Assembly: GCA_041652815.1 (NCBI GenBank)
Contig: JBAZGN010000002.1
Span: 238,261 to 302,260 of the forward strand
Direction of reading: 5' to 3'
DNA from: Candidatus Omnitrophota bacterium
GTDB taxonomy: Bacteria > Omnitrophota > Gorgyraeia > Duberdicusellales > 4484-171
DNA length: 64,000 nt
The notes beneath the pieces are model-generated. The model saw only the letters and a list, made by a program, of their open reading frames with translations. It made no database searches and was not told where the DNA came from. Positions 2,525 through 59,645 of the stretch are shown in pieces (the stretch's first letter is position 1; each line of letters starts with the position of its first letter). The translations under genes were made by a program, and so were the position numbers.

Positions 2525-3010
2525 ATGCTTTGCGATATTTGCCACAAAAATATAGCTACTGTTCATCTTACAGAAATTATCAACGATAAAGTTGTTGAAA
2601 TGCACATCTGCCAGAATTGTACAAAAACAAAAACCCAGGAACTTAAGGAAAATTTAACTATACCGGAACTTTTAACTGGATTGATAAATACAACTGAAGC
2701 TCACAAAAAAGAAGCCCCGCTTAAATGCGAGTTTTGCGGTTTAACTTACGTAGATTTTAAGAAAAAAGCACGGTTTGGCTGTGGTAGGTGCTATTCGGTT
2801 TTCAAAGTGCAGATTCTGCCGCTGCTTAAAAAAATACATGGTTCACTTACTTACGCGGGAAAATCCGCAATTGATATGCAGAAAGATTCTTTTTCAAATA
2901 GCGTGAAGGAATTAAAAATAAGGCTTGAACGCGCTATAAAATTAGAAGAATACGAAGAAGCTGCGCGCCTACGGGACGAACTTAAAAAGCTGGAGCAAAA
3001 ACCCATCTAG
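2525..3010 (+). CDS. mcsA: McsA-like activator of protein arginine kinase (two CxxC zinc-finger pairs + C-terminal UVR motif)
   Basis: CDICH...HICQNC and CEFCG...CGRC pairs are present. The C-terminal EEYEEAARLRDELKKLE UvrB/C motif is present. It lies immediately upstream of mcsB-clpC. Confidence 0.7.
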   Translation: MLCDICHKNIATVHLTEIINDKVVEMHICQNCTKTKTQELKENLTIPELLTGLINTTEAHKKEAPLKCEFCGLTYVDFKKKARFGCGRCYSVFKVQILPLLKKIHGSLTYAGKSAIDMQKDSFSNSVKELKIRLERAIKLEEYEEAARLRDELKKLEQKPI

Positions 3011-3105
3011 ATGCTTGATGCTCGCTACTTGATGCTTGTAGAAAAAATAACGAGTATCTAGCATCTAGGATCGAGCATCAATGTTGAAGTTTTGGTATAA
3101 AAAAC

Positions 3106-4151: not shown

Positions 4152-4246
4152 ATAGAAGCGGATATCCGCGGATCTAAACGCGGATAAACGCAAGCTGATT
4201 GGCGTGCGTAAATCCGCGTAGATATCCGCGGCAATCCGCTTCTACT
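4152..4246. repeat. Intergenic dyad-symmetric element, family R1 (CGCGGAT words), copy A
   Basis: It is ~88% identical over ~90 bp to 59556..59645. It contains the ATCCGCGGAT palindrome and a nested AAACGCGGATAAACGC / GCGTAAATCCGCG inverted repeat. Confidence 0.8.
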
Positions 4247-4268: not shown

Positions 4269-6701
4269 ATGTTTAACAGATTTACAGAGAGAGCAAGAAA
4301 AGTTTTGGTTCTTGCGAAAGAAGAAGCAAGGCGTTTTAATCATGATTACATAGGCACAGAGCATATACTACTTGGTTTGGTAAGAGAAGGCGAGGGGGTG
4401 GCTTGTGCTGTTTTGCAGAATTTAGGTATTGATTTGGAGCGCTTGAGAATCGAAATAGAAAAACTGATTTCTCCCGGAAGCTCGGCTTCTGTTTTGGGAG
4501 AAATACCGTTTACACCGCGCGCCAAAAAAGCCTTAGAGCTTGCTGCTGAGGAAGCGCATAATCTGGGGCACAATTACATAGGCACAGAGCATATTCTCCT
4601 TGGCTTAATAAGGGAAGGCGAGGGGTTAGCTTCACAGGTCCTTTTTTCGTTAGGTGTTGATTTACGAAAAATAAGGGAAGAAATAGCAGCTCTTCTTGGA
4701 GGAGGCCAGTCTTATCAGGGGGCTGCCCCGCAGGCTACATCCAAAACCCCGGCATTAGATTCTTTCGGAAGAGATTTAACCAAACTTGCAAAAGAAGGCA
4801 AATTAGACCCGGTTATCGGCCGTAAAGGCGAGATAGAAAGAGTTATCCAGGTGCTTTCACGCAGGACCAAAAACAATCCTGTTCTTTTGGGTGAAGCTGG
4901 CGTAGGCAAAACTGCAATCGTAGAAGGTTTAGCTCAAAGCATAACACTTGGTGAGGTACCGGAGATTCTTCGGAATAAAAGAATAGTTGTGCTTGATTTG
5001 GCGCTGATGATAGCCGGAACAAAATACCGCGGGCAGTTTGAAGAAAGAATTAAAGCAGTAATGGAGGAAATAAAACGTTCCAAAGACGTTATTATTTTCA
5101 TAGATGAGTTGCATACTCTCGTTGGCGCAGGCGCAGCTGAAGGAGCGATAGATGCTTCAAATATTTTAAAGCCGTCCTTGTCCAGAGGGGAAATTCAGTG
5201 TATAGGTGCAACCACCCTTGATGAATACAGAAAATATATAGAAAAAGATGCGGCGCTCGAGAGGAGGTTTCAGCCGATAATCGTTGAGCCGAATTCTGTT
5301 GAAGAAACAGTTGAAATATTAAAAGGCCTACGCGATAAATACGAAGCGCACCACAGAGTTAAATTTTCTAATGAAGCAGTTGAGGCAGCATCAAAGCTTT
5401 CTGACAGGTATGTATCCGGAAGATTTTTGCCGGATAAAGCAGTTGATTTAATTGATGAGGCGGGTGCCCGCGCGCGTTTGGCGGTTTTGACGGCTCCGAA
5501 AGAGATAAAAGACCTTGAAGACAAATTAAATGGAATAGACCGCGAAAAAGAAGCTCTTATAAAACAGCAGGATTTTGAAGCAGCGGCACGGCTTCGTGAC
5601 GAAGAAAAAAAGCTACGGCTGCAGCTGGATTCTTTAAGAAAGGATTGGAGCAAAAAAAGAGACCAGATTATTCCGACTGTAAGCGAAGAAGATATTGCGC
5701 ATTTAGTTGCGCAAATTACAGGTATACCCATCTACAGGCTTGAAGAAAGAGAATCGGAAAAGCTTCTTAAGATTGAAGAAAAATTAACCGAAACAGTCAT
5801 CGGCCAGACAGAAGCCCTCCAGGCTATAGCGCGTTCTATCAGGCGTGCAAGGGCAGGGATAAAAGAGCCGCGCCGGCCAATTGGCTCATTTATGTTTCTC
5901 GGGCCAACCGGAGTAGGCAAGACTTTGCTTGCGCGGGCTCTTGCTGAACTTATGTTCGGTGATGAAGAGGCATTGCTTCAAATTGATATGAGCGAGTATA
6001 TGGAGAAATTCAATGTTTCAAGGCTTATAGGAGCCCCCCCCGGCTATGTAGGTTACGAGGAGGGAGGCCAGCTTACCGAACGTGTTAGAAGAAGGCCGTA
6101 TTCCGTAATTTTGCTTGATGAAATAGAAAAAGCCCATCCAGATGTGTTTAATTTACTTTTACAGATATTGGAAGAAGGCAGGCTTACCGACAGCTTCGCA
6201 AGAAAGATTGATTTTAGAAATACCATTTTGATAATGACTTCTAATGTTGGCGCTGAAATAATCAGGCAGCGTGGTTCCTTGGGTTTTAAGCCTCTGACAG
6301 AAGATATAGGCTACGAAGATATGAAGAACATGCTTCTTGATGAAGTAAAAAAAGCGTTTAAACCGGAATTTTTGAATAGGCTAGATGAGGTTATAGTTTT
6401 TAGGCCTCTTGGTAAAGAAGACCTTGGCAAGATAGTTGACATTGAGCTTTCCTACGTGAACAGCCGCCTGAAAGACCAGGGTGTTGAGGTCCAACTTTCC
6501 AATGATGCCAAGGATTTTTTTGTAGAGAAAGGTTTTGATCCGGTGTTTGGTGCGCGCCCTTTAAAGAGAGTTATACAAAGGTTTTTAGAGGATCCGTTGG
6601 CGGAAGATATAATAAAAGGAGAATTTACAGAGAGATTGAAAAAAGAAAAACCAGTGAAAATAAAAGTAACTAGAAAAGGCGAAGAATTGAAGTTTGAATG
6701 A
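4269..6701 (+). CDS. clpC: ATP-dependent Clp protease ATP-binding subunit ClpC
   Basis: Tandem Clp-N repeats, two AAA+ modules (GEAGVGKT and GPTGVGKT Walker A) and a UVR-like coiled coil between the AAA modules. The length is 810 aa. Confidence 0.9.
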
Positions 6702-26410: not shown

Positions 26411-27121
26411 CTATGTTTTTGAAAAAGCTATCACTGTAATCGCAGCCCCTTTTTCTTTAAGCGCATAAGCGCATTCTTTTACGGTTGAACCGGTAGTAAA
26501 AATATCATCTACTAGTATAACTTTTTTGTTTTCCAGGCCTGCCTGCGCCGAGAAAGCGCCTTTTAGGTTCTTAAGCCGGCTGATTTTATCCAGTTTTGCC
26601 TGGGATGAGCTTTCTCTAGTAGCATAGATTATATCATCTTTAAAGCAAATTTTGAAATAATTTGCTAAATATTGTGCAAGCAGGCCTGCCTGATTATAGC
26701 CTCTGTCGCGTAACTTGGTTTTATATAAAGGGACTGCTGTTATAATATCATAACCGCAGGGCTCAAAACCAATTCGTGTTAAATGTTTAATCATCAAAGA
26801 AGCAAACAACTCAACAAGGAAATCGTAATTTTTATATTTAAAAGAATGTATTAAATCTACGACAGGATTTTTATATTTTGTTATGCAAATCAATTTTTCG
26901 TAAGGGAATTTTTTCTTTAAACACTTGGCGCAGATTTTTTCTTTTTTATTTGTTAGCCGGTTTGAACAAAAAGGACACAGTGGAGGATAAATAAATTCTA
27001 TTTGGTTAAGGCATTTTGGGCAAAGATACCCTTCAATTATTTTTTCTTCGCAGGCGAAGCAAATTTTTGGTAAAAGAATATCTTTTATTGCCATCAAATA
27101 ATTTTTCAGCATAACCCACAT
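26411..27121 (-). CDS. comFC: ComF-family protein (N-terminal zinc ribbon + phosphoribosyltransferase domain)
   Basis: There are N-terminal CxxC...CxxC pairs. The C-terminal PRTase motif is VILVDDIFTTGST. Confidence 0.7.
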   Translation of the reverse strand: MWVMLKNYLMAIKDILLPKICFACEEKIIEGYLCPKCLNQIEFIYPPLCPFCSNRLTNKKEKICAKCLKKKFPYEKLICITKYKNPVVDLIHSFKYKNYDFLVELFASLMIKHLTRIGFEPCGYDIITAVPLYKTKLRDRGYNQAGLLAQYLANYFKICFKDDIIYATRESSSQAKLDKISRLKNLKGAFSAQAGLENKKVILVDDIFTTGSTVKECAYALKEKGAAITVIAFSKT

Positions 27122-27332
27122 TCTAAGGTTTTTTATGCAATTTGCAAACCTTATTGATGCACAGATGAGATATTCGTCTAACGGTTGCCTGCCCGCCGCA
27201 GGCGGGCGAGTTCGTTACGGTTGCGTTAAGCGCAGGGCGTCATTAAGACGCAACCGATAAACGATAGATGAAACGAGTCGCACAACCGATGGACGATTTA
27301 CGATATACTAAATCTGTGCCATAAACCTCACA
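27122..27332. repeat. Intergenic dyad element, family R4 (CAACCGAT / CGTTAC words + GC hairpin GCCTGCCCGCCGCAGGCGGGCGAG), copy A
   Basis: It shares the CAACCGATGGACG...ACGATATAC 3' module with 32084..32297. The GC hairpin module is present in reverse-complement orientation there. Confidence 0.7.
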
Positions 27333-27386
27333 TTGCAAAATTACGCTTGTGGTAGTAAAATATGCCTTCAAAAAGGGGGGTATTTT

Positions 27387-28028
27387 ATGAACAAAAAGAT
27401 AGTTTTTTTCATTATGGCTATTACATTTTTATGGTCAGCCAGCTTATTTGCTGAAGCAGTAAAATTAATTAAATTGCCTCAACCTGATATGCAGGGAGGA
27501 AAACCCTTAATGCAGGCTCTAAAAGAAAGAAAATCCAGCCGTGAATTTTCTAATAAGTTGCTTTCTCCCCAAATGCTTTCAGATTTATTATGGGCTGCTT
27601 ATGGCGTAAATAGAGTTGAATCAAAGGGAAGAACCGCCCCTTCGGCTATGAATGTCCAGGAAATAGATATATATGTTGCACTTTCTTCAGGCTTATACTT
27701 ATACGATTCTTTCAAAAACACACTTGAGCTTATTGTGGCGCAGGATATAAGAGGTGTAACCGGCACTCAGCTTTTCGTTAAAGAAGCGCCGATAAACTTA
27801 ATTTTTGTTGCAGATTTTTCCCGCGCAGAAAAATTGGAAGGGGATAAGGAAGCCATCGCAGCCTGCGATACGGGCTTCATTAGCCAGAACGTTTATCTTT
27901 ATTGTGCATCCAGCGGGTTATCAACTGTTGTGCGAGGTTGGTTTGATAAAAAAGAGCTTTCTCAAGCTATGAAGCTTAAACCCAATCAAAAAATAATTCT
28001 TACGCAGACAGTCGGATATCCGAAATGA
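27387..28028 (+). CDS. Nitroreductase-family (SagB-type dehydrogenase-like) protein with N-terminal signal peptide/anchor
   Basis: The hydrophobic N-terminus MNKKIVFFIMAITFLWSASLFA is present. The nitroreductase-fold core is KERKSSREF...LLWAAYGVNR. A strong RBS precedes ATG 27387. Confidence 0.55.
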   Translation: MNKKIVFFIMAITFLWSASLFAEAVKLIKLPQPDMQGGKPLMQALKERKSSREFSNKLLSPQMLSDLLWAAYGVNRVESKGRTAPSAMNVQEIDIYVALSSGLYLYDSFKNTLELIVAQDIRGVTGTQLFVKEAPINLIFVADFSRAEKLEGDKEAIAACDTGFISQNVYLYCASSGLSTVVRGWFDKKELSQAMKLKPNQKIILTQTVGYPK

Positions 28029-28049
28029 AATAATCTACGATAAGCTTAT

Positions 28050-29198
28050 ATGGATAAAATATATTTTGACTACAATTCAAGCACTCCTTTGGATAAAAGA
28101 GTTTTCAAGAAAATGCTTCCATACCTTGGGGCTAATTTTGCAAATCCGTCGGCAATTTACAGTATTGCCCAAAAGGCAAAGAATGCCATTGAGGATGCAA
28201 GAATTTCTGTTGCGAATCTACTTGGGGCAAAGCCAAAAGAGATAATTTTTACAAGTGGCGGCACAGAAGCAAATAACTTAGCGATAAAAGGATTTTGTTT
28301 TGCAAATCGCGCAAAGGGCAACCATATTATTACTTCAAAAATAGAGCATTCTTCGGTTTTGAATGTTTTTAATTTCTTAGAAACAAAAAATTTTAAGGTA
28401 ACATATCTTGATGTTGATGAATATGGCATAATCAATATGGAGCAGCTTGAAAGCTGTATGGACAAAGAAACCATTTTGCTTTCCATAATGCACGTAAATA
28501 ACGAAATTGGAACTATTCAGCCTATTGAAAAGCTCAAGGCTATCTGCAATAAACGTAAAGTCTGTTTCCATACAGATGCTGTACAGAGTTTCGGTAAAGT
28601 GGAGGTTGACGTAGCCTTCGCCGATTTAATTACTGTTTCTTCCCATAAAATTTATGGCCCCAAAGGTGCGGGTGCATTGTATGTTGGTAGTGGCATAAGC
28701 ATTGAACCGTTATTGCACGGTGGCCATCAAGAAGAGGAATTGCGTCCGGGTACAGAGGCGGTTGCATCAATCGTAGGTTTCGGAGAAGCGTGCCGATTAA
28801 GGTTGCAGGAAATGAAAGCAGAACAAATTAAAGTGAAAAAGATGAGAGATGCTCTAGAGGCGGGCATTCTTAAGACAGTAAAGGGAATAAAAGTAAATGG
28901 ACATCCTCAAAATCGGTTATATAATACTCTGAATATTTGTATTGAGGGCGTTGAAGCCCAGAATCTTGTAATAAACCTGGATATGAGAGGATTTTGTGCC
29001 TCAAGTGGCTCCGCCTGCCAGGCAAGGGTGCCGGAAGTTTCCTATGTTCTTATTGCAACAGGTATGAGCCAAAAAGATTGTGCTGGCGCTTTACGCTTAA
29101 GTTTGGGTAAGTTTAATAAGGAAAGTGATATTCACGCTTTACTTAAAGTATTACCGGAAATTATAAAAAATTTACGGGCATCAGCAAGCCATGGATAA
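28050..29198 (+). CDS. Cysteine desulfurase (class V PLP aminotransferase, IscS/NifS-like)
   Basis: The PLP-lysine region SSHKIYGPKG and the active-site Cys loop SSGSAC are present. The length is 382 aa. Confidence 0.8.
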   Translation: MDKIYFDYNSSTPLDKRVFKKMLPYLGANFANPSAIYSIAQKAKNAIEDARISVANLLGAKPKEIIFTSGGTEANNLAIKGFCFANRAKGNHIITSKIEHSSVLNVFNFLETKNFKVTYLDVDEYGIINMEQLESCMDKETILLSIMHVNNEIGTIQPIEKLKAICNKRKVCFHTDAVQSFGKVEVDVAFADLITVSSHKIYGPKGAGALYVGSGISIEPLLHGGHQEEELRPGTEAVASIVGFGEACRLRLQEMKAEQIKVKKMRDALEAGILKTVKGIKVNGHPQNRLYNTLNICIEGVEAQNLVINLDMRGFCASSGSACQARVPEVSYVLIATGMSQKDCAGALRLSLGKFNKESDIHALLKVLPEIIKNLRASASHG

Positions 29199-30096
29199 AT
29201 TAATAAAAAAAATTTTAGAGTTAAAGGAAGAAAAGAAAGCGCTGATTTTAGCGCACAATTATCAGATTTCCCAGATACAGGATATTGCTGATTTTGTGGG
29301 GGATTCTCTTGAGTTGTCAAAGACTTCCAAAGGAGTATCTGTTCCTTTAATTGTTTTCTGCGGAGTCAGGTTTATGGCTGAAACCGCAAAGATACTGTCA
29401 AAAGATAAAAAAGTACTTTTGCCTGCCCAAACTGCAGGCTGCCCACTTGCCGAAACCATAAACGCCAAGGATGTTTTGAATTTGCGCAAATTACACCCTA
29501 GCGCCTGGGTTGTAAGTTATGTAAACACATCTGCCGAGGTAAAAGCTGTAAGTGATGTTTGCTGCACTTCCAGTAACGCGATAAATGTGGTCAAGAATGT
29601 TCCGACAAAAGATGTAATATTCGTGCCTGATAAAAATCTTGGCTGGTGGGTGAGAAAGAATGTGCCGGAAAAAAATGTGATATTGTGGAATGGCAGTTGC
29701 TATGTGCACGAACAATTTACCTTAAATGATTTGCTTGAAGCAAGAAAGAAATTTCCCGAAGCGGAAATTATAGTTCACCCCGAATGTAAGAAGGAAATTC
29801 TTGAAAGGTGCGATTTTGTTGCCTCCACCGCAGGAATGTTAAAAAGGGCAAAGCAGTCAAACGCAAAAACAATCATTATCGGGACAGAAGAAGGTTTATT
29901 ACATAAACTGAAAAAGGAAAATCCCAACAAGCAATTTTTCTCTCTCGGGATTTCGCGGACCTGCCTAAATATGAAAAAAACAACACTGAATGAGCTCCTT
30001 ACTTCGTTAGAAAAAGAAATATACGAAATCAATCTAGAGGAAGATATTATCGAAAAAGCTGGAATTGCTTTGGAGCGAATGGTTCAATATATTTAG
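29191..30096 (+). CDS. nadA: Quinolinate synthase
   Basis: The N-terminus ...ILAHNYQ and the 301 aa length are typical of NadA. There is an 8-bp overlap with the upstream desulfurase. Confidence 0.85.
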   Translation: MDKLIKKILELKEEKKALILAHNYQISQIQDIADFVGDSLELSKTSKGVSVPLIVFCGVRFMAETAKILSKDKKVLLPAQTAGCPLAETINAKDVLNLRKLHPSAWVVSYVNTSAEVKAVSDVCCTSSNAINVVKNVPTKDVIFVPDKNLGWWVRKNVPEKNVILWNGSCYVHEQFTLNDLLEARKKFPEAEIIVHPECKKEILERCDFVASTAGMLKRAKQSNAKTIIIGTEEGLLHKLKKENPNKQFFSLGISRTCLNMKKTTLNELLTSLEKEIYEINLEEDIIEKAGIALERMVQYI

Positions 30097-30140
30097 CGCT
30101 TTACCTTCCTTATGCCCCATCTAATTTCTAATATTCAACA

Positions 30141-31214
30141 ATGAAGAAGAAAGCTAAAGTAGCAGTTGGTTTAAGCGGAGGAATCGACTCAAGTTTCGCC
30201 GCCTATCTCTTGAAAAAACAAGGCTATGATGTCTGTGGTTTTACTCTAAAATTTTATCCGCAGGATAACCGTTGCTGCGATTTGGATGGTTTATATCAGG
30301 CGCAGCGTCTCTGTAGTAAGCTTAATATACCCCACTATACGATAGATACTACGGATTTTTTTAAAAAAGAAATAGTTGATTATTTTATTACAAGCTATCT
30401 ATCAGGGCTTACTCCTAATCCCTGTTCTTTTTGTAACCGGCTGGTTAAGTTTGGATATCTTTTTGAAAAAATAAGAGCAATGGGCTTTGACTATCTTTCA
30501 ACCGGCCACTACGCCAATATAGTAAAAAGAAAAGAACATTTGTTGTTAGGGTGTGCAAAGGATACTATCAAGTCACAGGAATATTTCTTGTCATTGATAA
30601 AGCCAGAGATTCTTCCCTGTCTTATTTTTCCTTTAGGCAGGTTTACTAAAGACAAAGTAAAAAAAATAGCCAAAAAAGAAAAACTTATGTTCCAGGAGAG
30701 GAAAGAAAGCCAGGATATATGTTTTGTGAAAGAAAAACAATATTATGGTTTCATAGAAAAGATGCTCCAAGCCCCGCAGAAATATTACGGCGATATTCGC
30801 CATATAAACGGTAAAGTCTTAGGCAGGCATAAAGGCATATATTATTTTACTTACGGCCAGCGTGCGGGCCTTGGGATAAGCTGGCATGAACCATTATATG
30901 TTTTAAAGGTTGACGAGAAAGACAATTCTGTTATTGTGGGAGAAAGAAAATACCTGAGCAAAGAAAGTTTTAGCGTAAGAAACATAAATTCTTTCATCGA
31001 TTGGAAGAATTATTTTCCGGACAATAATTTAACCGATATTAAGGTAAAAATACGCTATAATTCAAAATTTTATGATTGTATTCCGGAATTAAAAGGAGAA
31101 AGAATTTTAGTTAGCCTTAAAACTGCAGCAGAAGCAGTAACTCCCGGACAAATTGCGGTTTTTTACCACAAAGATGCGGTTTTGGCCGCCGGCGTTATCG
31201 AGAAAGATGTTTAG
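30141..31214 (+). CDS. mnmA: tRNA-specific 2-thiouridylase
   Basis: The PP-loop VAVGLSGGIDSS is present. The length is 357 aa. Confidence 0.85.
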   Translation: MKKKAKVAVGLSGGIDSSFAAYLLKKQGYDVCGFTLKFYPQDNRCCDLDGLYQAQRLCSKLNIPHYTIDTTDFFKKEIVDYFITSYLSGLTPNPCSFCNRLVKFGYLFEKIRAMGFDYLSTGHYANIVKRKEHLLLGCAKDTIKSQEYFLSLIKPEILPCLIFPLGRFTKDKVKKIAKKEKLMFQERKESQDICFVKEKQYYGFIEKMLQAPQKYYGDIRHINGKVLGRHKGIYYFTYGQRAGLGISWHEPLYVLKVDEKDNSVIVGERKYLSKESFSVRNINSFIDWKNYFPDNNLTDIKVKIRYNSKFYDCIPELKGERILVSLKTAAEAVTPGQIAVFYHKDAVLAAGVIEKDV

Positions 31215-31288
31215 GATGCCAGATGCTCGATTCTCGATGCTGGATGGTAAAACGAGTATCCAGTATCGAGGGTCAGTTACGTATTATA
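31215..31288. repeat. Intergenic dyad element, family R5 (GATGCTCGA / TCGAGCATC, AAAACGAGTATC words), copy B
   Basis: It is related to 3011..3105 and, in inverted orientation, to 33600..33679. Confidence 0.6.
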
Positions 31289-32083
31289 ATGAAACTATTA
31301 CAAAAAAAATATCTTAAGCTTAAACGCCGGATAAATAATTTAGGTTCCGCGGTTATTGCGTTTTCCGGAGGCCTTGACAGTACTATTTTGGCAAAAATTT
31401 GTTTTGATTGTTTAGGAAGAAACGCTATTGCCGTAACCGCCAAATCTGCCACTTACACATCTAGCGAGTTAAAAGAAGCAACCAAGGCTGCAAAATTAAT
31501 AGGGATAAAGCATATAGTTATAGAAACTGATGAATTTAAAAATGAAAAATTTATAAATAATCCTCTAAACAGGTGTTATTGGTGTAAACGCGAATTGTTC
31601 ATTAAATTGAAAAAGTTTGCCCGCGCGTATAAAATAAAAAATATTTTAGACGGTACGAATCTTGATGATTGTTCTGATGTGCGGCCGGGATTCGCGGCAA
31701 ATAAGGAATTTAACGTAATAAGCCTTTTCCTTGAATGCGGTTTGGCTAAAAAAGATATAAGACAATTGGCTGAAAGGTTAAATATTTCCGTGAAAACATC
31801 TAACGCCTGCCTTGCCTCGCGCATACCTTTTTACGAGAAAATCACTCCCTTGAAATTGGCAAAAATAGAAAAAGCAGAAAATATCTTAAGGAAATATTTC
31901 GGAAACAAAAACATATTACGTGCGCGTGACCATGGCGGAATTTTACGCATAGAAATGGAAAATAAAGAATGGACTAAGCTTGGTAATTCTGGTATAAATA
32001 ACCTTGTAAAAAAATTGAAAAAAATTGACTACAAATATATAACCGTTGATTTGGAAGGGTATATTCCGGCAGGACTTAGATGA
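31289..32083 (+). CDS. PP-loop ATP pyrophosphatase, LarE-like/TIGR00268-type
   Basis: The PP-loop AFSGGLDST is present. Start ATG 31289 was chosen because the upstream in-frame extension runs through the repeat element. Confidence 0.6.
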   Translation: MKLLQKKYLKLKRRINNLGSAVIAFSGGLDSTILAKICFDCLGRNAIAVTAKSATYTSSELKEATKAAKLIGIKHIVIETDEFKNEKFINNPLNRCYWCKRELFIKLKKFARAYKIKNILDGTNLDDCSDVRPGFAANKEFNVISLFLECGLAKKDIRQLAERLNISVKTSNACLASRIPFYEKITPLKLAKIEKAENILRKYFGNKNILRARDHGGILRIEMENKEWTKLGNSGINNLVKKLKKIDYKYITVDLEGYIPAGLR

Positions 32084-32297
32084 AATACACAGACGATCAC
32101 AGATTGGAAAGCAGATTATCACAGATAGACTTGCGTTAATCGGTTGCGGTTACGCCGCTTGTATCGGTTGCGTTAATCGTCAATCGTCTTTTTGGACGCA
32201 ACCGAATAACGAACGATGAGATAAGCTCGCCCGCCAAAGGCGGGCAGGCAACCGATGGACGGAAGACGATATACCAAGTGTATTAAGGAGGATAAAG
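32084..32297. repeat. Intergenic dyad element, family R4, copy B
   Basis: It contains CTCGCCCGCCAAAGGCGGGCAGGC (the reverse complement of the copy A hairpin) and CAACCGATGGACGGAAGACGATATACC. Confidence 0.7.
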
Positions 32298-32912
32298 ATG
32301 AAAAGATTTGATTTTGCTGCGATTATATTTTCGTTAAGTATTGTCCTAGTTGGTTGTTCGAATGCACCTACTGAAGTTATGATTGATAGTTTCGAGGGGC
32401 CGCTGACAAAGGAAACAGTTGATTACGGAGCCGCAGAAGGCTCTTTTCTAAAAGTAGAAGCTGATACCAATATCAAGATATGCGATATGCAGTCGCTCAA
32501 AATAGAGTATGAATTAAAACCTTCCGGCTATATGTGGATAGCGCGTGGGTATAATCTTGATGTAAAAGGCGCAGCTAAATGGAATGTTTTGCCTGAAAAT
32601 ATAAAATGGCGTAGCTTTAACGCTATAAGTTTACAGATGTACGGCACAAATAGCGGCGGGGTGGTTGCCTTTGACATTAAAGATAAAGGCGGAGAAATCT
32701 GGCGATACATAATTGACGATGATTTTACCGGATGGAAAGAAATAACCTGCAAGTTTAAGGATTTTTTTGTCCGCAAAGATTGGCAGCCGGATAGCGCAAC
32801 TAAAAATGAGACAATAGATTTTCCGATTATGAGTTTCCAGTTTGAACCGCGCCTTCCGGGAAAGGGTATTTACTATTTTGATTGCATAAAGGTTGTCAGG
32901 GCAAAGAAATAA
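32298..32912 (+). CDS. Hypothetical lipoprotein (lipobox LVGCS)
   Basis: A signal peptide with a Cys lipobox is present. There is a strong RBS AAGGAGG. Confidence 0.45.
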   Translation: MKRFDFAAIIFSLSIVLVGCSNAPTEVMIDSFEGPLTKETVDYGAAEGSFLKVEADTNIKICDMQSLKIEYELKPSGYMWIARGYNLDVKGAAKWNVLPENIKWRSFNAISLQMYGTNSGGVVAFDIKDKGGEIWRYIIDDDFTGWKEITCKFKDFFVRKDWQPDSATKNETIDFPIMSFQFEPRLPGKGIYYFDCIKVVRAKK

Positions 32913-32915
32913 GCC

Positions 32916-33599
32916 ATGAGCATTAAAAACAGATTGAAGAGATGGTTTAAGCTCAGATTTTTCGTAACTTATCCTTTCGGTTTATTTGTTTTATTTTTCT
33001 GCAGCCCCACTACGGAATCTTTTAACTCCGGCATTTGGTTTGTGATTGCGGGTTTAATTATGCGGCTTTGGGCAAATGGTTATGCTATCAAGACGCATAA
33101 ACTTACAACTTCAGGGCCTTATTCTATTGTGCGTAACCCTTTATATCTTGGCACGATGCTGATTGCGATAGGTTTTATGATACTGTTAGATACTTCTTAT
33201 GTGGGATTAGTTTTTATAATAATTATGGCAGCAGTATATTACCGTACTATCAGATACGAAGAGCGGGCATTGACGGAAAAGCACGGAAAAATTTATCTTG
33301 ATTATAAAGATAAAGTGCCGATGATATTGCCTACTTTTTTCAGGTATAAAAAAGGTGAAAAGTGGCCGTTTAGCTTTAAACGCATAATTGAAAATAAAGA
33401 ATATAAACTTTTTATATGGGTAATTAATATTACGATAATCTTTAGATTAAAAGGGTACTTCTTAATAGACCATGAAAGCATAGATGCAAAGAAATGGTTT
33501 CTCATTGCTTTATTTATAATTTTAGCCGCTATAGACATCGGCGGAGAAATCTTTAAGTGGAATAAGAAAAGAGCGAAGAGAATGGGGAACACACAATAG
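32916..33599 (+). CDS. Isoprenylcysteine carboxyl methyltransferase/phospholipid methyltransferase-family membrane protein
   Basis: The family motif GPYSIVRNPLYLG...YEERAL is present, along with multi-TM topology and a C-terminal extension. Confidence 0.55.
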   Translation: MSIKNRLKRWFKLRFFVTYPFGLFVLFFCSPTTESFNSGIWFVIAGLIMRLWANGYAIKTHKLTTSGPYSIVRNPLYLGTMLIAIGFMILLDTSYVGLVFIIIMAAVYYRTIRYEERALTEKHGKIYLDYKDKVPMILPTFFRYKKGEKWPFSFKRIIENKEYKLFIWVINITIIFRLKGYFLIDHESIDAKKWFLIALFIILAAIDIGGEIFKWNKKRAKRMGNTQ

Positions 33600-33679
33600 A
33601 TGCCCGATACTAGATTCTAGATACTCGTCGTTTTTATCACGGGCATCTAGCATCAAGTATCTAGAATCTATTTAGTAAT
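33600..33679. repeat. Intergenic dyad element, family R5, copy C (inverted)
   Basis: It runs GATACTAGATTCTAGATACTCGTCGTTTTT...CATCTAGCATCAAGTATCTAGAATCTA. Confidence 0.55.
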
Positions 33680-34870: not shown

Positions 34871-35438
34871 AATAATTTTGGCTTCAAAATCAAAAGCAAG
34901 AAAAGATTTGCTTAAAGGAATAGGGCTTAAGTTTTCTGTTTATGTTTCCGGGGCCAAAGAAACCCATAGCTTAAGCAAAGGCTGCCATCATCTTGTTGTA
35001 AAAAACGCACTCATAAAAGCGAGAGATGCGGCAAAAAGGTTTAACGCAGGCGTAGTTATAGCCGCAGATACGGTTGTTTTAGCAAATAATAAAATAATTG
35101 GAAAACCCAAGAATTTGAATGAGGCATTTAAAACGCTTAAAACTATTTCAAAGAAACCGCAATGGGTTTATACGGGACTTGCCGTAATTGACATAGATAA
35201 AAATAAAATATTTACGGATTACGAAAAAACAAAGATTTATATGCTAGCTTTAAGCGATAGGCAGATAAGAAATTATTTTAAAAAAGTTTCTCCTTTGGAT
35301 AAGGCCGGAAGTTTTGATATCCAGGGGCTGGGGGGCATATTTATTGACCGTATTGAAGGTTGTTTTTATAATGTAGTAGGGCTACCGCTTGCTAAATTAG
35401 CAAAGCTGCTTAAAAAGGCAGGAATTGAGATATTCTGA
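34863..35438 (+). CDS. maf: Maf-family nucleoside triphosphate pyrophosphatase
   Basis: The N-terminus is MRKIILASKSKAR. It has an ATGCGTAA overlap with the upstream gene. Confidence 0.8.
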   Translation: MRKIILASKSKARKDLLKGIGLKFSVYVSGAKETHSLSKGCHHLVVKNALIKARDAAKRFNAGVVIAADTVVLANNKIIGKPKNLNEAFKTLKTISKKPQWVYTGLAVIDIDKNKIFTDYEKTKIYMLALSDRQIRNYFKKVSPLDKAGSFDIQGLGGIFIDRIEGCFYNVVGLPLAKLAKLLKKAGIEIF

Positions 35439-35543
35439 TAGAGAACAGATAGCAGAGTACAGAGAACAGAGAAAAAATAAGAGAGTTTGTTCTGTAATCT
35501 GTACTCTGTTTTCTGTACTCTTTCCGAGCGTAGCGAGGAAAAC
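35439..35543. repeat. Intergenic dyad element (ACAGAG / CTCTGT words)
   Basis: GAGAACAGATAGCAGAGTACAGAGAACAGAG lies opposite CTGTAATCTGTACTCTGTTTTCTGTACTCT. Confidence 0.55.
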
Positions 35544-58178: not shown

Positions 58179-59555
58179 ATGAAATTTATCCCCCCTTTTA
58201 TTAATAGTTTCAGGGTAAAAGTAACTCTTACTTTAATCTTCTCATTGTTGTTTATTGCGGGATTGGATAATTTTATTCTTTACGAATATAACTTACGTCT
58301 GCAATTCAAAAATTTACAGGATAAATTAAAAACTATCGCCAGTACGGCAGCCATAGATATCGATGCGGATTTAATTGGGAAAGTCCCATTGAATAGGGAA
58401 GGAATAAACAGCCAAGCCTATGAAACAATAGCCGAACAGCTTAACAAAATTAAAAAAGCAAACCCGCAATTAAAATATATTTATACTCTTGCCAAAACCG
58501 GCACGCCCGGCATTGCGCAATTTATCGTTGATCCTTCGCCTTATATAGGCACGCGTACATCTTTGCCGGGAGATAAATACGATGCCTACCGTTTTCCGGA
58601 AATGCTCGAGGCTTACGGGGGCCCTACCGTAGACAAAAATCTTGTAATTGATGAATGGGGAGCAACGCTCTCGGCTTATGCGCCGATTTATGGTAAAAAT
58701 TTAAAAGCTGTTGCGATTTTGGGGGTGGATATAGATGCCAATGAAGTTTATACGCTGCAAAAGGCTGCCCGGTTAAAAACGCTTTTTATTCTAATACTTG
58801 TAATAGCTGTTTCAATATTGCTTGGAGCTTGGATTTCAATGGATGTTACGCGGCCGGTTCAGAATCTTGTTGAAGGCACGCGTAGGATTGCGGCCGGAAA
58901 TTTGGATTATAAAGTTGAGATTAAAAGTAAAGACGAGATAGGAGAACTAGCCGAGGCATTTAACGCTATGGCTGGGAATTTAGCAGCTTCGCGGGAAAAA
59001 CTGCACGATTATTTCTATCGTGTAGTCCAGGCTATGGTAAGGAGCCTTGAAGCAAAAGACCACTATACGCGAGGCCATTCCGACAGGGTAAGTGAATATT
59101 CCGCAGATATAGCAAAAGCTATTGGGTTTTCCGATGAAAAAGTAGAAATGCTTAAAAAGGCAGCGCAGCTGCATGATATAGGAAAATTAGGAATTCATGA
59201 GGATATTTTGAATAAAAAAAGCGCGCTTTCAGAGAATGAATGGGATTTAATTCATCAGCATCCTGCTGTAGGAGAAGAAATCTTAAAGCCCATTTTTCTG
59301 GACGAAGAAATGCTTGCCGTTGTAAGGAGCCACCACGAGCGGTATGATGGAAAAGGATATCCCGATGGCTTAAAGGCAGAGCAGATTAATATTTTTGCTC
59401 AAATTGTTTGTGTCGCTGATAGTTATGATGCAATGACATCATCCCGTTCCTATCGGGCTGCTTTAAGTAAAGAGGAAGCAATAGAGCGCCTTAAAAAAGA
59501 TTGCGGCGCTCAATTTAACCCGGAAATTGTAGAGGCATTTATAAAAGTATTATAG
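58179..59555 (+). CDS. HD-GYP phosphodiesterase with periplasmic sensor domain, TM and HAMP
   Basis: A signal/TM, a periplasmic domain, a second TM and HAMP are present. The HD-GYP motifs are HDIGKLGI and HHERYDGKGYP. Confidence 0.75.
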   Translation: MKFIPPFINSFRVKVTLTLIFSLLFIAGLDNFILYEYNLRLQFKNLQDKLKTIASTAAIDIDADLIGKVPLNREGINSQAYETIAEQLNKIKKANPQLKYIYTLAKTGTPGIAQFIVDPSPYIGTRTSLPGDKYDAYRFPEMLEAYGGPTVDKNLVIDEWGATLSAYAPIYGKNLKAVAILGVDIDANEVYTLQKAARLKTLFILILVIAVSILLGAWISMDVTRPVQNLVEGTRRIAAGNLDYKVEIKSKDEIGELAEAFNAMAGNLAASREKLHDYFYRVVQAMVRSLEAKDHYTRGHSDRVSEYSADIAKAIGFSDEKVEMLKKAAQLHDIGKLGIHEDILNKKSALSENEWDLIHQHPAVGEEILKPIFLDEEMLAVVRSHHERYDGKGYPDGLKAEQINIFAQIVCVADSYDAMTSSRSYRAALSKEEAIERLKKDCGAQFNPEIVEAFIKVL

Positions 59556-59645
59556 TAGCGGATTACCGCGGAACTAAACGCGGATAAACGCATGCTAATT
59601 CGCTTGCGTAAATCCGCGTAGGTATCCGCGGCAATCTGCTTCTAT
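59556..59645. repeat. Intergenic dyad element, family R1, copy B
   Basis: It is ~88% identical to 4152..4246. Confidence 0.8.

Follow-up and report, generated by a model that had tools for sequence, protein, structure and literature searches.

Dispersed palindromic repeats of bacteria are usually genus-specific and homogeneous within each genome, and the family described here, R4, falls outside this picture of burst and decay. Insertion of the IS200/IS605 type leaves no duplication of its target. For the traits of the ERIC repeats used for comparison here, see also Hulton 1991 and Wilson & Sharp 2006. Effects at the RNA level, through an RNase E site, are reported for ERIC, and for the Correia elements in-situ inversion has been reported, along with folding of their transcripts and cleavage of these by RNase III (PMC10969869). 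REPs of the GTAG and CGTC types measure 20-40 bp and have stems of 8-9 bp (PMC3733652), and MITEs are largely genus-specific in published surveys (PMC11602168).

The DNA considered here, referred to as the window, is a stretch of 64,000 nt from a Candidatus Omnitrophota bacterium (assembly GCA_041652815.1, contig JBAZGN010000002.1, positions 238,261-302,260). Two of its intergenic spacers carry related elements, for which the name R4 is kept from the original prediction; these two window copies are called copy A (W-A) and copy B (W-B). Judged from sequence, R4 is an undescribed family of predicted hairpin-forming repeats common to the chromosomes of Omnitrophota and Planctomycetota. We see about an even chance that the single copy in each of the two spacers is an insertion element comparable to ERIC and Correia, non-coding and made of nested palindromes. 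The phyla that carry R4 are mostly uncultured and the non-coding elements described from them are almost nil.

Two R4 copies in the window

The original prediction placed the elements at 27122..27332 and 32084..32297 and pointed to words common to both spacers. All of the words quoted are present and non-random: CGGTTGCG occurs eight times in the window against 1.23 expected, with five of the eight inside the two spacers, and CAACCGATGGACG is found exactly at 27283-27295 and 32249-32261, followed in each case by N4-ACGATATAC (direct repeat D17). The GC hairpin described below went unmatched in all shuffles. The extents, however, were too generous. Profile matches place a smaller shared element at 27174-27306 and 32134-32272, and a profile search of the window returned these two copies only.

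In copy A the whole inserted unit, composed of the R4 core and its outer arms, runs from 27152 to 27322 on the plus strand and is absent from the orthologous site in the contigs L037 and L038. It stands between two direct repeats AAACCT, neither assigned to a strand, at 27146..27151 on the left and 27323..27328 on the right. The filled site reads TTTGCAAACC, then a 178-bp insert ending in CCATAAACCT, then CACATTGCAAAAT, and the empty allele of L037/L038 reads TTTGTAAACC-T-CGCGTTGCAAAGT. The outer arms, GCACAGAT (27159-27166) and ATCTGTGC (27312-27319), pair in the predicted fold. The core, at 27174..27306, scores 86.8 bits on the plus strand against 20.2 on the minus strand with nhmmer. Its outer-helix 5' arm CGTCTAACGGTTG (27175..27187, plus strand), the reverse complement of CAACCGATGGACG with two mismatches, is paired in the folds. 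The accessory GC hairpin (27187..27210, plus strand, 0 mismatches) lies in the 5' arm, bordered by the outer helix and by TTCGT, and has an 8-bp stem. There follow, all on the plus strand, the inner hairpin CGGTTGCG-TTAA-loop-AAGA-CGCAACCG (27218..27256), the asymmetric segment ATAAACGATAGATGAAACGAG (27257..27277; family consensus nnnGACGATAGACGAAACGAG), which is seen in the alignments and marks polarity, and the outer-helix 3' arm CAACCGATGGACG with its tail ATTT-ACGATATAC (27283..27308; D17).

Copy B is preceded on its left by a tract of CACAGA(T) words (32086..32128, plus strand); copy A has its outer arms made of these words, and they also flank L002. The core lies at 32134..32272 (nhmmer 95.5 bits on the plus strand against 20.3 on the minus strand). 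It comprises, on the plus strand, a canonical 5' arm GCGTTAATCGGTTGC-GGTTACGCCGCTTGT (32133..32162), the inner hairpin (32165..32204) and a degenerate asymmetric segment AATAACGAACGATGAGATAAG (32205..32225). The words CTTGT and ATAAG still pair in this copy, as the canonical CTCGT and ACGAG do. Here the accessory GC hairpin is on the minus strand (32226..32249, 0 mismatches), in the 3' arm from ATAAG to the outer helix, and makes a 7-bp stem in the plus-strand fold. The outer-helix 3' arm GCAACCGATGGACG and the tail GAAG-ACGATATAC complete the copy (32248..32275, plus strand; D17).

Both window copies present their parts in the same order and orientation, namely 5' arm, inner hairpin, asymmetric segment and 3' arm. 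The elements had been taken for mosaics of shuffled and inverted modules. That they are related and modular is borne out, but they are built on one conserved scaffold with parts in fixed order and orientation.

The R4 scaffold and its folding

The canonical form of R4 has about 123 nt (roughly 125) and consists of nested GGTTGCG/CGCAACC heptamers together with the asymmetric segment GACGATAGACGAAACGAG. The window copies have 133 nt (A) and 139 nt (B) because each bears an extra hairpin, and copies across the family span 97-170 nt. The family consensus can be written as GCGTTAAACGGTTGCGGTTGCGnnGCTCGTATCGGTTGCGTTAA-(variable loop)-AAGACGCAACCGnnnGACGATAGACGAAACGAGnnGCGCAACCGATAGACGAAATACGCAACC, with two to four GGTTGCG heptamers on the left arm and matching CGCAACC heptamers on the right. 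Since the heptamers are complementary between the arms, either single strand can fold as a long branched hairpin. The nested helices comprise an outer CGGTTG/CAACCG, a middle CTCGT/ACGAG and an inner CGGTTGCG/CGCAACCG helix, and GACGATAGACGAAACGAG, which is conserved, unpaired and found on the 3' side only, gives R4 its polarity. The inner hairpin is invariant in 17 aligned copies, a set picked by that very motif; copies outside the strict pattern vary in the inner helix, so that this invariance is partly an effect of ascertainment. The nested inverted repeats are strong, whereas the sequence immediately beside the flanking direct repeats is unconserved between lineages, with TATTGATGCACAGAT... 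in the window and TTTCAACGAAGAGG... in locus L012. A left end TTTCAAYGAAGARGG is common to L012 and L021.

The non-coding character of the element is indicated by indels in loops and hairpins of 20, 25 and 31 nt, which are not multiples of three. A small open reading frame inside R4 was considered and rejected, as the frame varies between copies and the one left open in L021 is closed by a TAA in L026.

When folded as RNA, copy A reaches -64.1 kcal/mol (z -5.5) and copy B -64.6 kcal/mol (z -5.4) relative to shuffles, and the two strands, taken as single-stranded DNA, have fold energies of -30 to -35 kcal/mol. Under the three-helix model 92.7% of cells pair, compared with 23-50% when the partners are slid. 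Covariation, assessed with RNAalifold and with explicit pair counts, does not go beyond chance, with 215 of 500 shuffles reaching the observed pairing. Moreover, A:C mismatches and G:U pairs occur at about equal frequency, so that no transcribed strand is marked. What the data show is a conserved palindrome, for which an RNA structure is only putative.

An accessory hairpin that changes arms

The GC hairpin of copy A had been reported to recur in copy B as its reverse complement at another place, and this is exactly what is found: GCCTGCCCGCC-NNN-GGCGGGCGAG occurs on the plus strand in A and on the minus strand in B with no mismatch. Its 21 specified bases are identical in the two copies, although these share only 64% of profile columns, and over a 36-nt stretch of arm and hairpin copies A and B are 86% complementary (I4). 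In copy A the plus-strand hairpin replaces the 5' strand of the junction between outer and middle helices, canonically GGTTGCGnnG, and in copy B its reverse complement stands in place of the 3' strand there, canonically nnGCG. This junction holds accessory hairpins in further members of the family, on the 5' arm in W-A and L018 and on the 3' arm in W-B, L002, L016 and L033. The hairpins of these other members have sequences unrelated to each other: GCCGTAAGGC on the 5' arm of L018, TCCCCGAAGGGGA and CCCGATAGAATCGGG on the 3' arms of L002 and L016 respectively, and an AT-rich one on the 3' arm of L033. These alignments indicate that the junction of the outer and middle helices is permissive and that the GC hairpin there is an accessory stem-loop, optional because unrelated hairpins fill the same junction in other copies, on either arm. 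Its flip between A and B may have come about by arm-to-arm recombination, gene conversion, template switching or nested inversions. Since the arms are inverse complements, exchange between them, within or between copies, would invert or transfer sequence lying between or beside them.

Distribution of the family

The family was searched for with the inner-hairpin pattern, an exact motif of 22 bases that biases the sample towards well-preserved copies, and a profile built from 17 copies was then run on the loci. Among GTDB representatives (one genome per species) the strict pattern occurs at seven sites: an Omnitrophota MAG has three of them, a Pirellulales MAG two, and a Sedimentisphaerales MAG and an unclassified bacterium one each. 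In metagenomes it gave 20 stretches, of which three (two distinct sites) are chance matches and several repeat the genome hits. The true hits all carry the whole scaffold of about 123 nt, well beyond the motif searched, as seen in the multiple alignment. Further copies outside the strict pattern were recovered with the profile in L003 (2229-2339 and 5501-5609), L008 (2534-2651) and L012 (10105-10201), bringing L003 to three copies, inside 3.4 kb of a pilin gene cluster, and L008 and L012 to two copies each. Altogether about 25 distinct R4 copies are on contigs of Omnitrophota, Pirellulales and Sedimentisphaerales, plus one short form in a phage.

The taxonomy of the loci was taken from record titles and from the names of homologues. 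In this way the window is assigned to Omnitrophota by the names of its nearest LarE homologues, and L012 to Sedimentisphaerales by those of its nearest ValRS homologues. The G+C content of the hosts ranges from 39% to 56%, with 39% in Omnitrophota and 50-56% in Planctomycetota. Copy number looks low, with one to three strict matches per MAG among the GTDB representatives. R4 copies differ from each other (64-92% identity), and the identity over profile columns is 0.727 within Omnitrophota, 0.718 between Omnitrophota and Pirellulales and 0.644 between W-A and W-B. An amplification burst, with many near-identical copies in a genome, is not what is seen, as identity within a lineage is about the same as identity across phyla. 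In a comparison made for signs of purifying selection, the orthologous copies of L003 and L018 are 97.5-98.7% identical, and adjacent stretches are 97-99% identical too, so that the flanks in the same 400 bp are equally conserved.

Rfam gave no match to the element at gathering score in the window, nor at E<=1 in L002-L008 and in positions 27000-32400 of the window. With blastn, no R4 copy was found in plasmid and phage collections, and the copy A unit had no match in 5,426 genomes of E. coli. Two R4 patterns found nothing in viral contigs; of the matches to a third, taken from the 5' arm, four in GC-rich or low-complexity sequence are due to chance and one, L044 (IMG/VR), is a real short form. 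This phage copy lies in the structural module, in sense orientation, just after the gene for the major tail protein.

Gain, loss and inversion at orthologous sites

Presence/absence polymorphism was found at three sites, those of copy A, of copy B and of the interval between valS and a bifunctional nuclease (BFN) gene. The site of copy A, filled with the 178-bp insert in the window and in contig L001, is empty in L037/L038, where 1 bp takes its place. In L029/L031 it holds a different palindrome of about 95 bp, and in L039 one similar to that. L033 carries R4 at this site with flanks and outer arms collinear with those of the window and with the core on the opposite strand (71.5 bits on the opposite strand against 30.2, compared with 86.8 on the plus strand against 20.2 for copy A). 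Going by this alignment, the difference between L033 and copy A is an in-situ inversion with apparent breakpoints in the inverted repeats of R4 itself. A flip of the core is known from this one pair, W-A and L033.

Copy B lies between larE and the gene for a CBM11-lipoprotein, in a spacer of 214 bp. In L029, L033, L037, L039 and L040, which are Omnitrophota with LarE 69-77% identical, the spacer is without the element and has 47-63 bp. In L001 it has 98 bp and contains an unrelated palindrome; this contig is 98.6% identical to the window up to the copy B spacer and 89% identical after it. Six related genomes are therefore without copy B. A search there for a precise target duplication found the related spacers too diverged for alignment. 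At the third site, between valS and the BFN nuclease gene of Sedimentisphaerales, L012 has the insert, in a spacer of 195 bp; L049 and L041 lack it, with spacers of 10 and 11 bp respectively, and L048 has a different insert.

Direct repeats of 5-7 bp flank the inserts, AAACCT at copy A, GTAAACC at the L029 insert and GAAAGG at the L012 insert. AAACCT is present once in the empty site of L037 and GAAAGG once in that of L049, and these are the only two independent comparisons of filled and empty sites. Moreover, at the copy A site two unrelated inserts have the same flanking repeat. Since the sequences abutting the repeats are unconserved, unlike the terminal repeats bound by transposases, the direct repeats could be microhomology at the junctions rather than target duplications.

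Genes around the copies

Both elements had been said to follow the end of a gene. This is confirmed for copy B, with LarE upstream, but does not apply to copy A, because the comFC-like ORF (26411-27121) is on the minus strand with its start facing the element. The spacer of copy A is thus a divergent promoter region. Two candidate divergent promoters, with TTGCAA as candidate -35 boxes, flank copy A, and that of the nitroreductase gene (27333-27361) is downstream of it, which leaves the element between the two and outside both predicted transcripts. The predictions place neither promoters nor terminators inside copy A or copy B. An intrinsic terminator was likewise rejected, as there is no terminator-like site at either element, the hairpins being followed by CGAGTT (A) and GCAACC (B).

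Across the family most copies are between co-directional genes, starting 5-35 nt past a stop codon. Relative to co-directional flanking genes, called with a simple ORF finder, about 13 copies are sense and four antisense (two-sided binomial p of about 0.05). The neighbouring genes are unrelated to each other. Those with Pfam support encode pilins, ValS, a histidine kinase and response regulators, 5-FTHF cyclo-ligase, iPGM and the bifunctional nuclease; frr-, nusB-, mutM- and HAD phosphatase-like neighbours were read from terminal residues or first codons only, and one copy is upstream of a tRNA array. R4 thus shows no constant association with a gene or an orientation: its neighbours are diverse, and the copy A site holds both orientations.

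The original prediction had linked the elements to genes for exported proteins, and the signal-peptide-like and lipobox N-termini of the genes downstream of the window copies can be read by eye. However, this link did not survive comparison, as orthologues of the CBM11-lipoprotein gene do without the element in five contigs and have another palindrome in L001, the nitroreductase site is empty in L037/L038, and the other copies flank unrelated genes. A role as a 5'UTR fares no better for copy A, which is outside both predicted transcripts.

No transposase is next to R4 at any copy in the loci examined. A lead towards a Y1 transposase was dropped, since Y1_Tnp proved to be a domain inserted in the ValRS of some Sedimentisphaerales and unconnected to R4. 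Composite transposons made from inverted pairs of R4 were also rejected, as the genes that such pairs enclose include no transposase; they are a kinase and response regulators in L008, a pilin in L003 and housekeeping genes in L012.

Insertion element or host function

If R4 is an insertion element of the ERIC/Correia kind, new copies would be made by transposition-like or microhomology-mediated insertion, with the help of a putative enzyme. Most sense copies between co-directional genes would be transcribed, and the RNA may form a stable hairpin that affects the processing or stability of the mRNA, as proposed by analogy with ERIC, Correia and REP. Copy A, between divergent promoters, is probably just DNA. 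MITEs are usually homogeneous in any one genome, and against a plain MITE is the finding that identity within a genome or lineage (0.73) is about that between phyla (0.72). Such equal divergence in these alignments runs contrary to a recent MITE burst and resembles the outcome of long-term selection on fixed words. The even divergence, the unconserved sequence next to the flanks and the lack of a partner enzyme in the loci seen keep alive a host-functional reading, which we regard as possible but tentative. R4 would then be a structured RNA or else a module, in DNA or RNA, recognised by a protein that these phyla have conserved. Selection would act on the heptamers and GACGATAGACGAAAC, and copies would be recruited where useful, for instance to punctuate the space between cistrons and so set the ends or the stability of mRNAs. 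The pattern of divergence agrees with this, being star-like, with fixed words next to saturated linkers and loops, as do the asymmetric segment kept in nearly all copies, the restriction of extra hairpins to a few junctions (as in structured RNAs) and a core that is preserved while the sequences beside the direct repeats are unconserved. Position points the same way, with some 13 sense copies to four antisense, starts 5-35 nt past a stop codon and the phage short form in sense just after the major tail protein gene. Set against these are covariation no better than in shuffles, a ratio of A:C to G:U that marks no strand, the four antisense copies themselves, the unrelated neighbours, the orthologous genes that do without R4 and the lack of a match to any Rfam family. 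In addition, copy A and its L033 counterpart, which differ in orientation, are each upstream of both candidate promoters. A stronger version, which we find rather doubtful, holds that R4 is not selfish at all and represents an ancient functional nucleic-acid module, with the heptamers and GACGATAGACGAAAC selected in every copy, as a new class of structured RNA or as a protein site. The nested inverted repeats would in that case additionally permit flip-flop inversion of the core.

R4 could also have a REP/BIME-type (REPIN-like) origin, in which it would be spread by a domesticated RAYT of the IS200 family, encoded elsewhere and acting on the folded single strand. A long vertical partnership with a conserved enzyme could explain words that are fixed across phyla, and R4 has the expected inverted cluster of short units, single-stranded DNA folding on both strands and intergenic copies mostly among co-directional genes; several copies begin with CGTC or CGTT, which recalls the CGTC-tagged REPs. 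However, the heptamers are not palindromic, the element has 123 nt where REPs have 20-40 bp (PMC3733652), no Y1 transposase is beside any copy (Y1_Tnp being found only within ValRS), direct repeats flank the filled sites and copy number appears low, which together make such an origin unlikely. Far more improbable is that R4 regulates in cis, as a 5'UTR or leader, genes for exported proteins in particular. Both window copies do precede genes whose products are signal-peptide-like or have a lipobox, but orthologues of both genes are without the element, other copies precede a tRNA array and varied genes, the candidate promoter of the nitroreductase gene is downstream of copy A, and the core of L033 is inverted. 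The insertion element of the ERIC/Correia kind is the reading preferred here.

Words that are fixed across phyla in copies that are equally diverged suggest a conserved trans-acting partner or a host function. R4 appears to be a natural quasi-palindrome whose core flips and whose accessory hairpins pass from one arm to the other. It is compact and searchable, and could serve to mark intergenic turnover and recombination breakpoints. Cultivable Sedimentisphaerales or Pirellulales would make it accessible to RNA-end mapping or protein pull-down.

Comparison with known repeat families

The ERIC or IRU repeats of Enterobacteriaceae and Vibrionaceae resemble R4 in being imperfect intergenic palindromes of about 125 bp that occur in either orientation, at low to moderate copy number and at strain-specific sites. 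They also share with R4 an unusual conservation across genera and size variants due to internal insertions and deletions. The two have no sequence similarity, as judged from the blastn search of 5,426 E. coli genomes, and R4 is built from nested heptamer repeats. Moreover, R4 crosses phyla whereas ERIC is confined to related families, and the direct repeats are 5-7 bp in R4 but TA in ERIC. The Correia elements (CREE) of Neisseria are, similarly to R4, small intergenic inverted-repeat elements that are gained and lost between strains. However, they belong to one genus, with more than 100 near-identical copies per genome, and have defined terminal repeats of 26 bp, a TA duplication, promoters and an IHF site, while the copies of R4 have diverged to 64-92% identity and their outermost sequences are unconserved.

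REP, BIME and REPIN elements with their RAYT are, like R4, inverted clusters of short units that fold as single strands. They too are intergenic, between co-directional or convergent genes, with different elements sharing a hot spot according to strain. The units of R4 are not singly palindromic, though, and have no GTAG tag, with CGTC in some copies only; in addition, no RAYT is near the copies examined, R4 has direct repeats at its flanks and its copies are far fewer. The pneumococcal BOX elements (see PMC3049150) may also be compared with R4, as intergenic repeats of modular build in which the number of internal modules varies and stable secondary structure can form. BOX consists of ordered direct modules (A, B and C) in one genus, whereas in R4 the palindromes are nested on a fixed scaffold to which hairpins are optional additions. 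By analogy of form and behaviour, ERIC and the Correia elements appear to be the closest known counterparts of R4.

Indels and nesting in R4 copies

Comparison of the orthologous R4 copies at L013 1095-1185 and L018 4182-4345 with that at L003 4868-4989, in contigs from relatives about 90-95% identical, showed that substitutions are far rarer than indels. Relative to the L003 copy, one has lost 25 nt between two ACGAAAC repeats; the other has gained two inserted hairpins, one of 20 nt and one of 25 nt. The Pirellulales R4 copy directly adjoins, on its left, 35 bases (AAATTCAAAATCCTAAACTCGAAATACGAG...) that recur elsewhere within the same contigs (repeat at L003 4792-4826, L011 7329-7363 and L018 1708-1742), and because of this recurrence R4 may be nested in Pirellulales inside a larger, lineage-specific repeat.

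Other palindromes at the R4 sites and elsewhere in the window

Across the spacer that holds copy B, between larE and the CBM11-lipoprotein gene, identity between the window and its close relative L001 falls from 98.6% to 89%, and this spacer therefore marks a recombination breakpoint. In L001 the place of copy B is taken by an unrelated palindrome, whose arms are CGTGCAAAGC/GCTTTGCACG and GCGCATGGCGCATAGCG/CGCTATGCCCTATGCGC and which lengthens the LarE reading frame by 10 codons; it is at L001 7920-8047, the orthologous counterpart of window 32074-32285.

At the copy A site, between the comFC-like and nitroreductase-like genes, other Omnitrophota contigs have a palindrome other than R4, about 95 bp long and with arms CCGTTAGACC/GGTCTAACGG (L029 5577-5671, L031 4325-4419 and L039 ~6076-6150), which is bordered by the same GTAAACC direct repeat and whose arms have the word GTCTAACGG in common with the R4 outer arm. 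A further AT-rich palindrome of about 200 bp, with GGTAACG/CGTTACC words at both sides, lies between the nitroreductase promoter region and the start codon in two Omnitrophota relatives (L029 5760-5990 and L033 5760-5960); this nitroreductase upstream palindrome is absent from the window.

Besides R4, the window contains at least four further families of long imperfect intergenic hairpins, each with its own short repeated word: CCGCGGAT (4152-4244 and 59552-59644), CTAGAT/GATGC (3008-3082 and 33596-33670), ACAGAG (35434-35527) and GTTGATAAG (1468-1541 and 2443-2513). Nested-palindrome spacers seem to be a general trait of this Omnitrophota genome.

Similarities to known elements

The window also gave a weak match to the preQ1-II riboswitch at 30593-30689, within the mnmA coding region (E 0.66); at 24.9 bits, below the gathering score of 47, this is almost certainly a chance match.

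In several Sedimentisphaerales, ValRS is longer by about 230 aa and has a weak match to the Pfam domain Y1_Tnp (IS200-like transposase), listed between the matches to the synthetase core and the anticodon-binding domain. This was found in P0173 (L041 6001-9723) and in the proteins P0138, P0147, P0153, P0194-P0196, P0200, P0201 and P0228, and looks like the insertion of a transposase-like domain into an essential enzyme.

A short R4-like element is present on the minus strand of a viral contig (L044 970-1051; IMG/VR contig IMGVR_UViG_3300025154_002802), with both arms but without the inner hairpin. It lies in sense orientation in a phage structural module with 42% G+C, where it separates the gene for the major tail protein from the one that follows.
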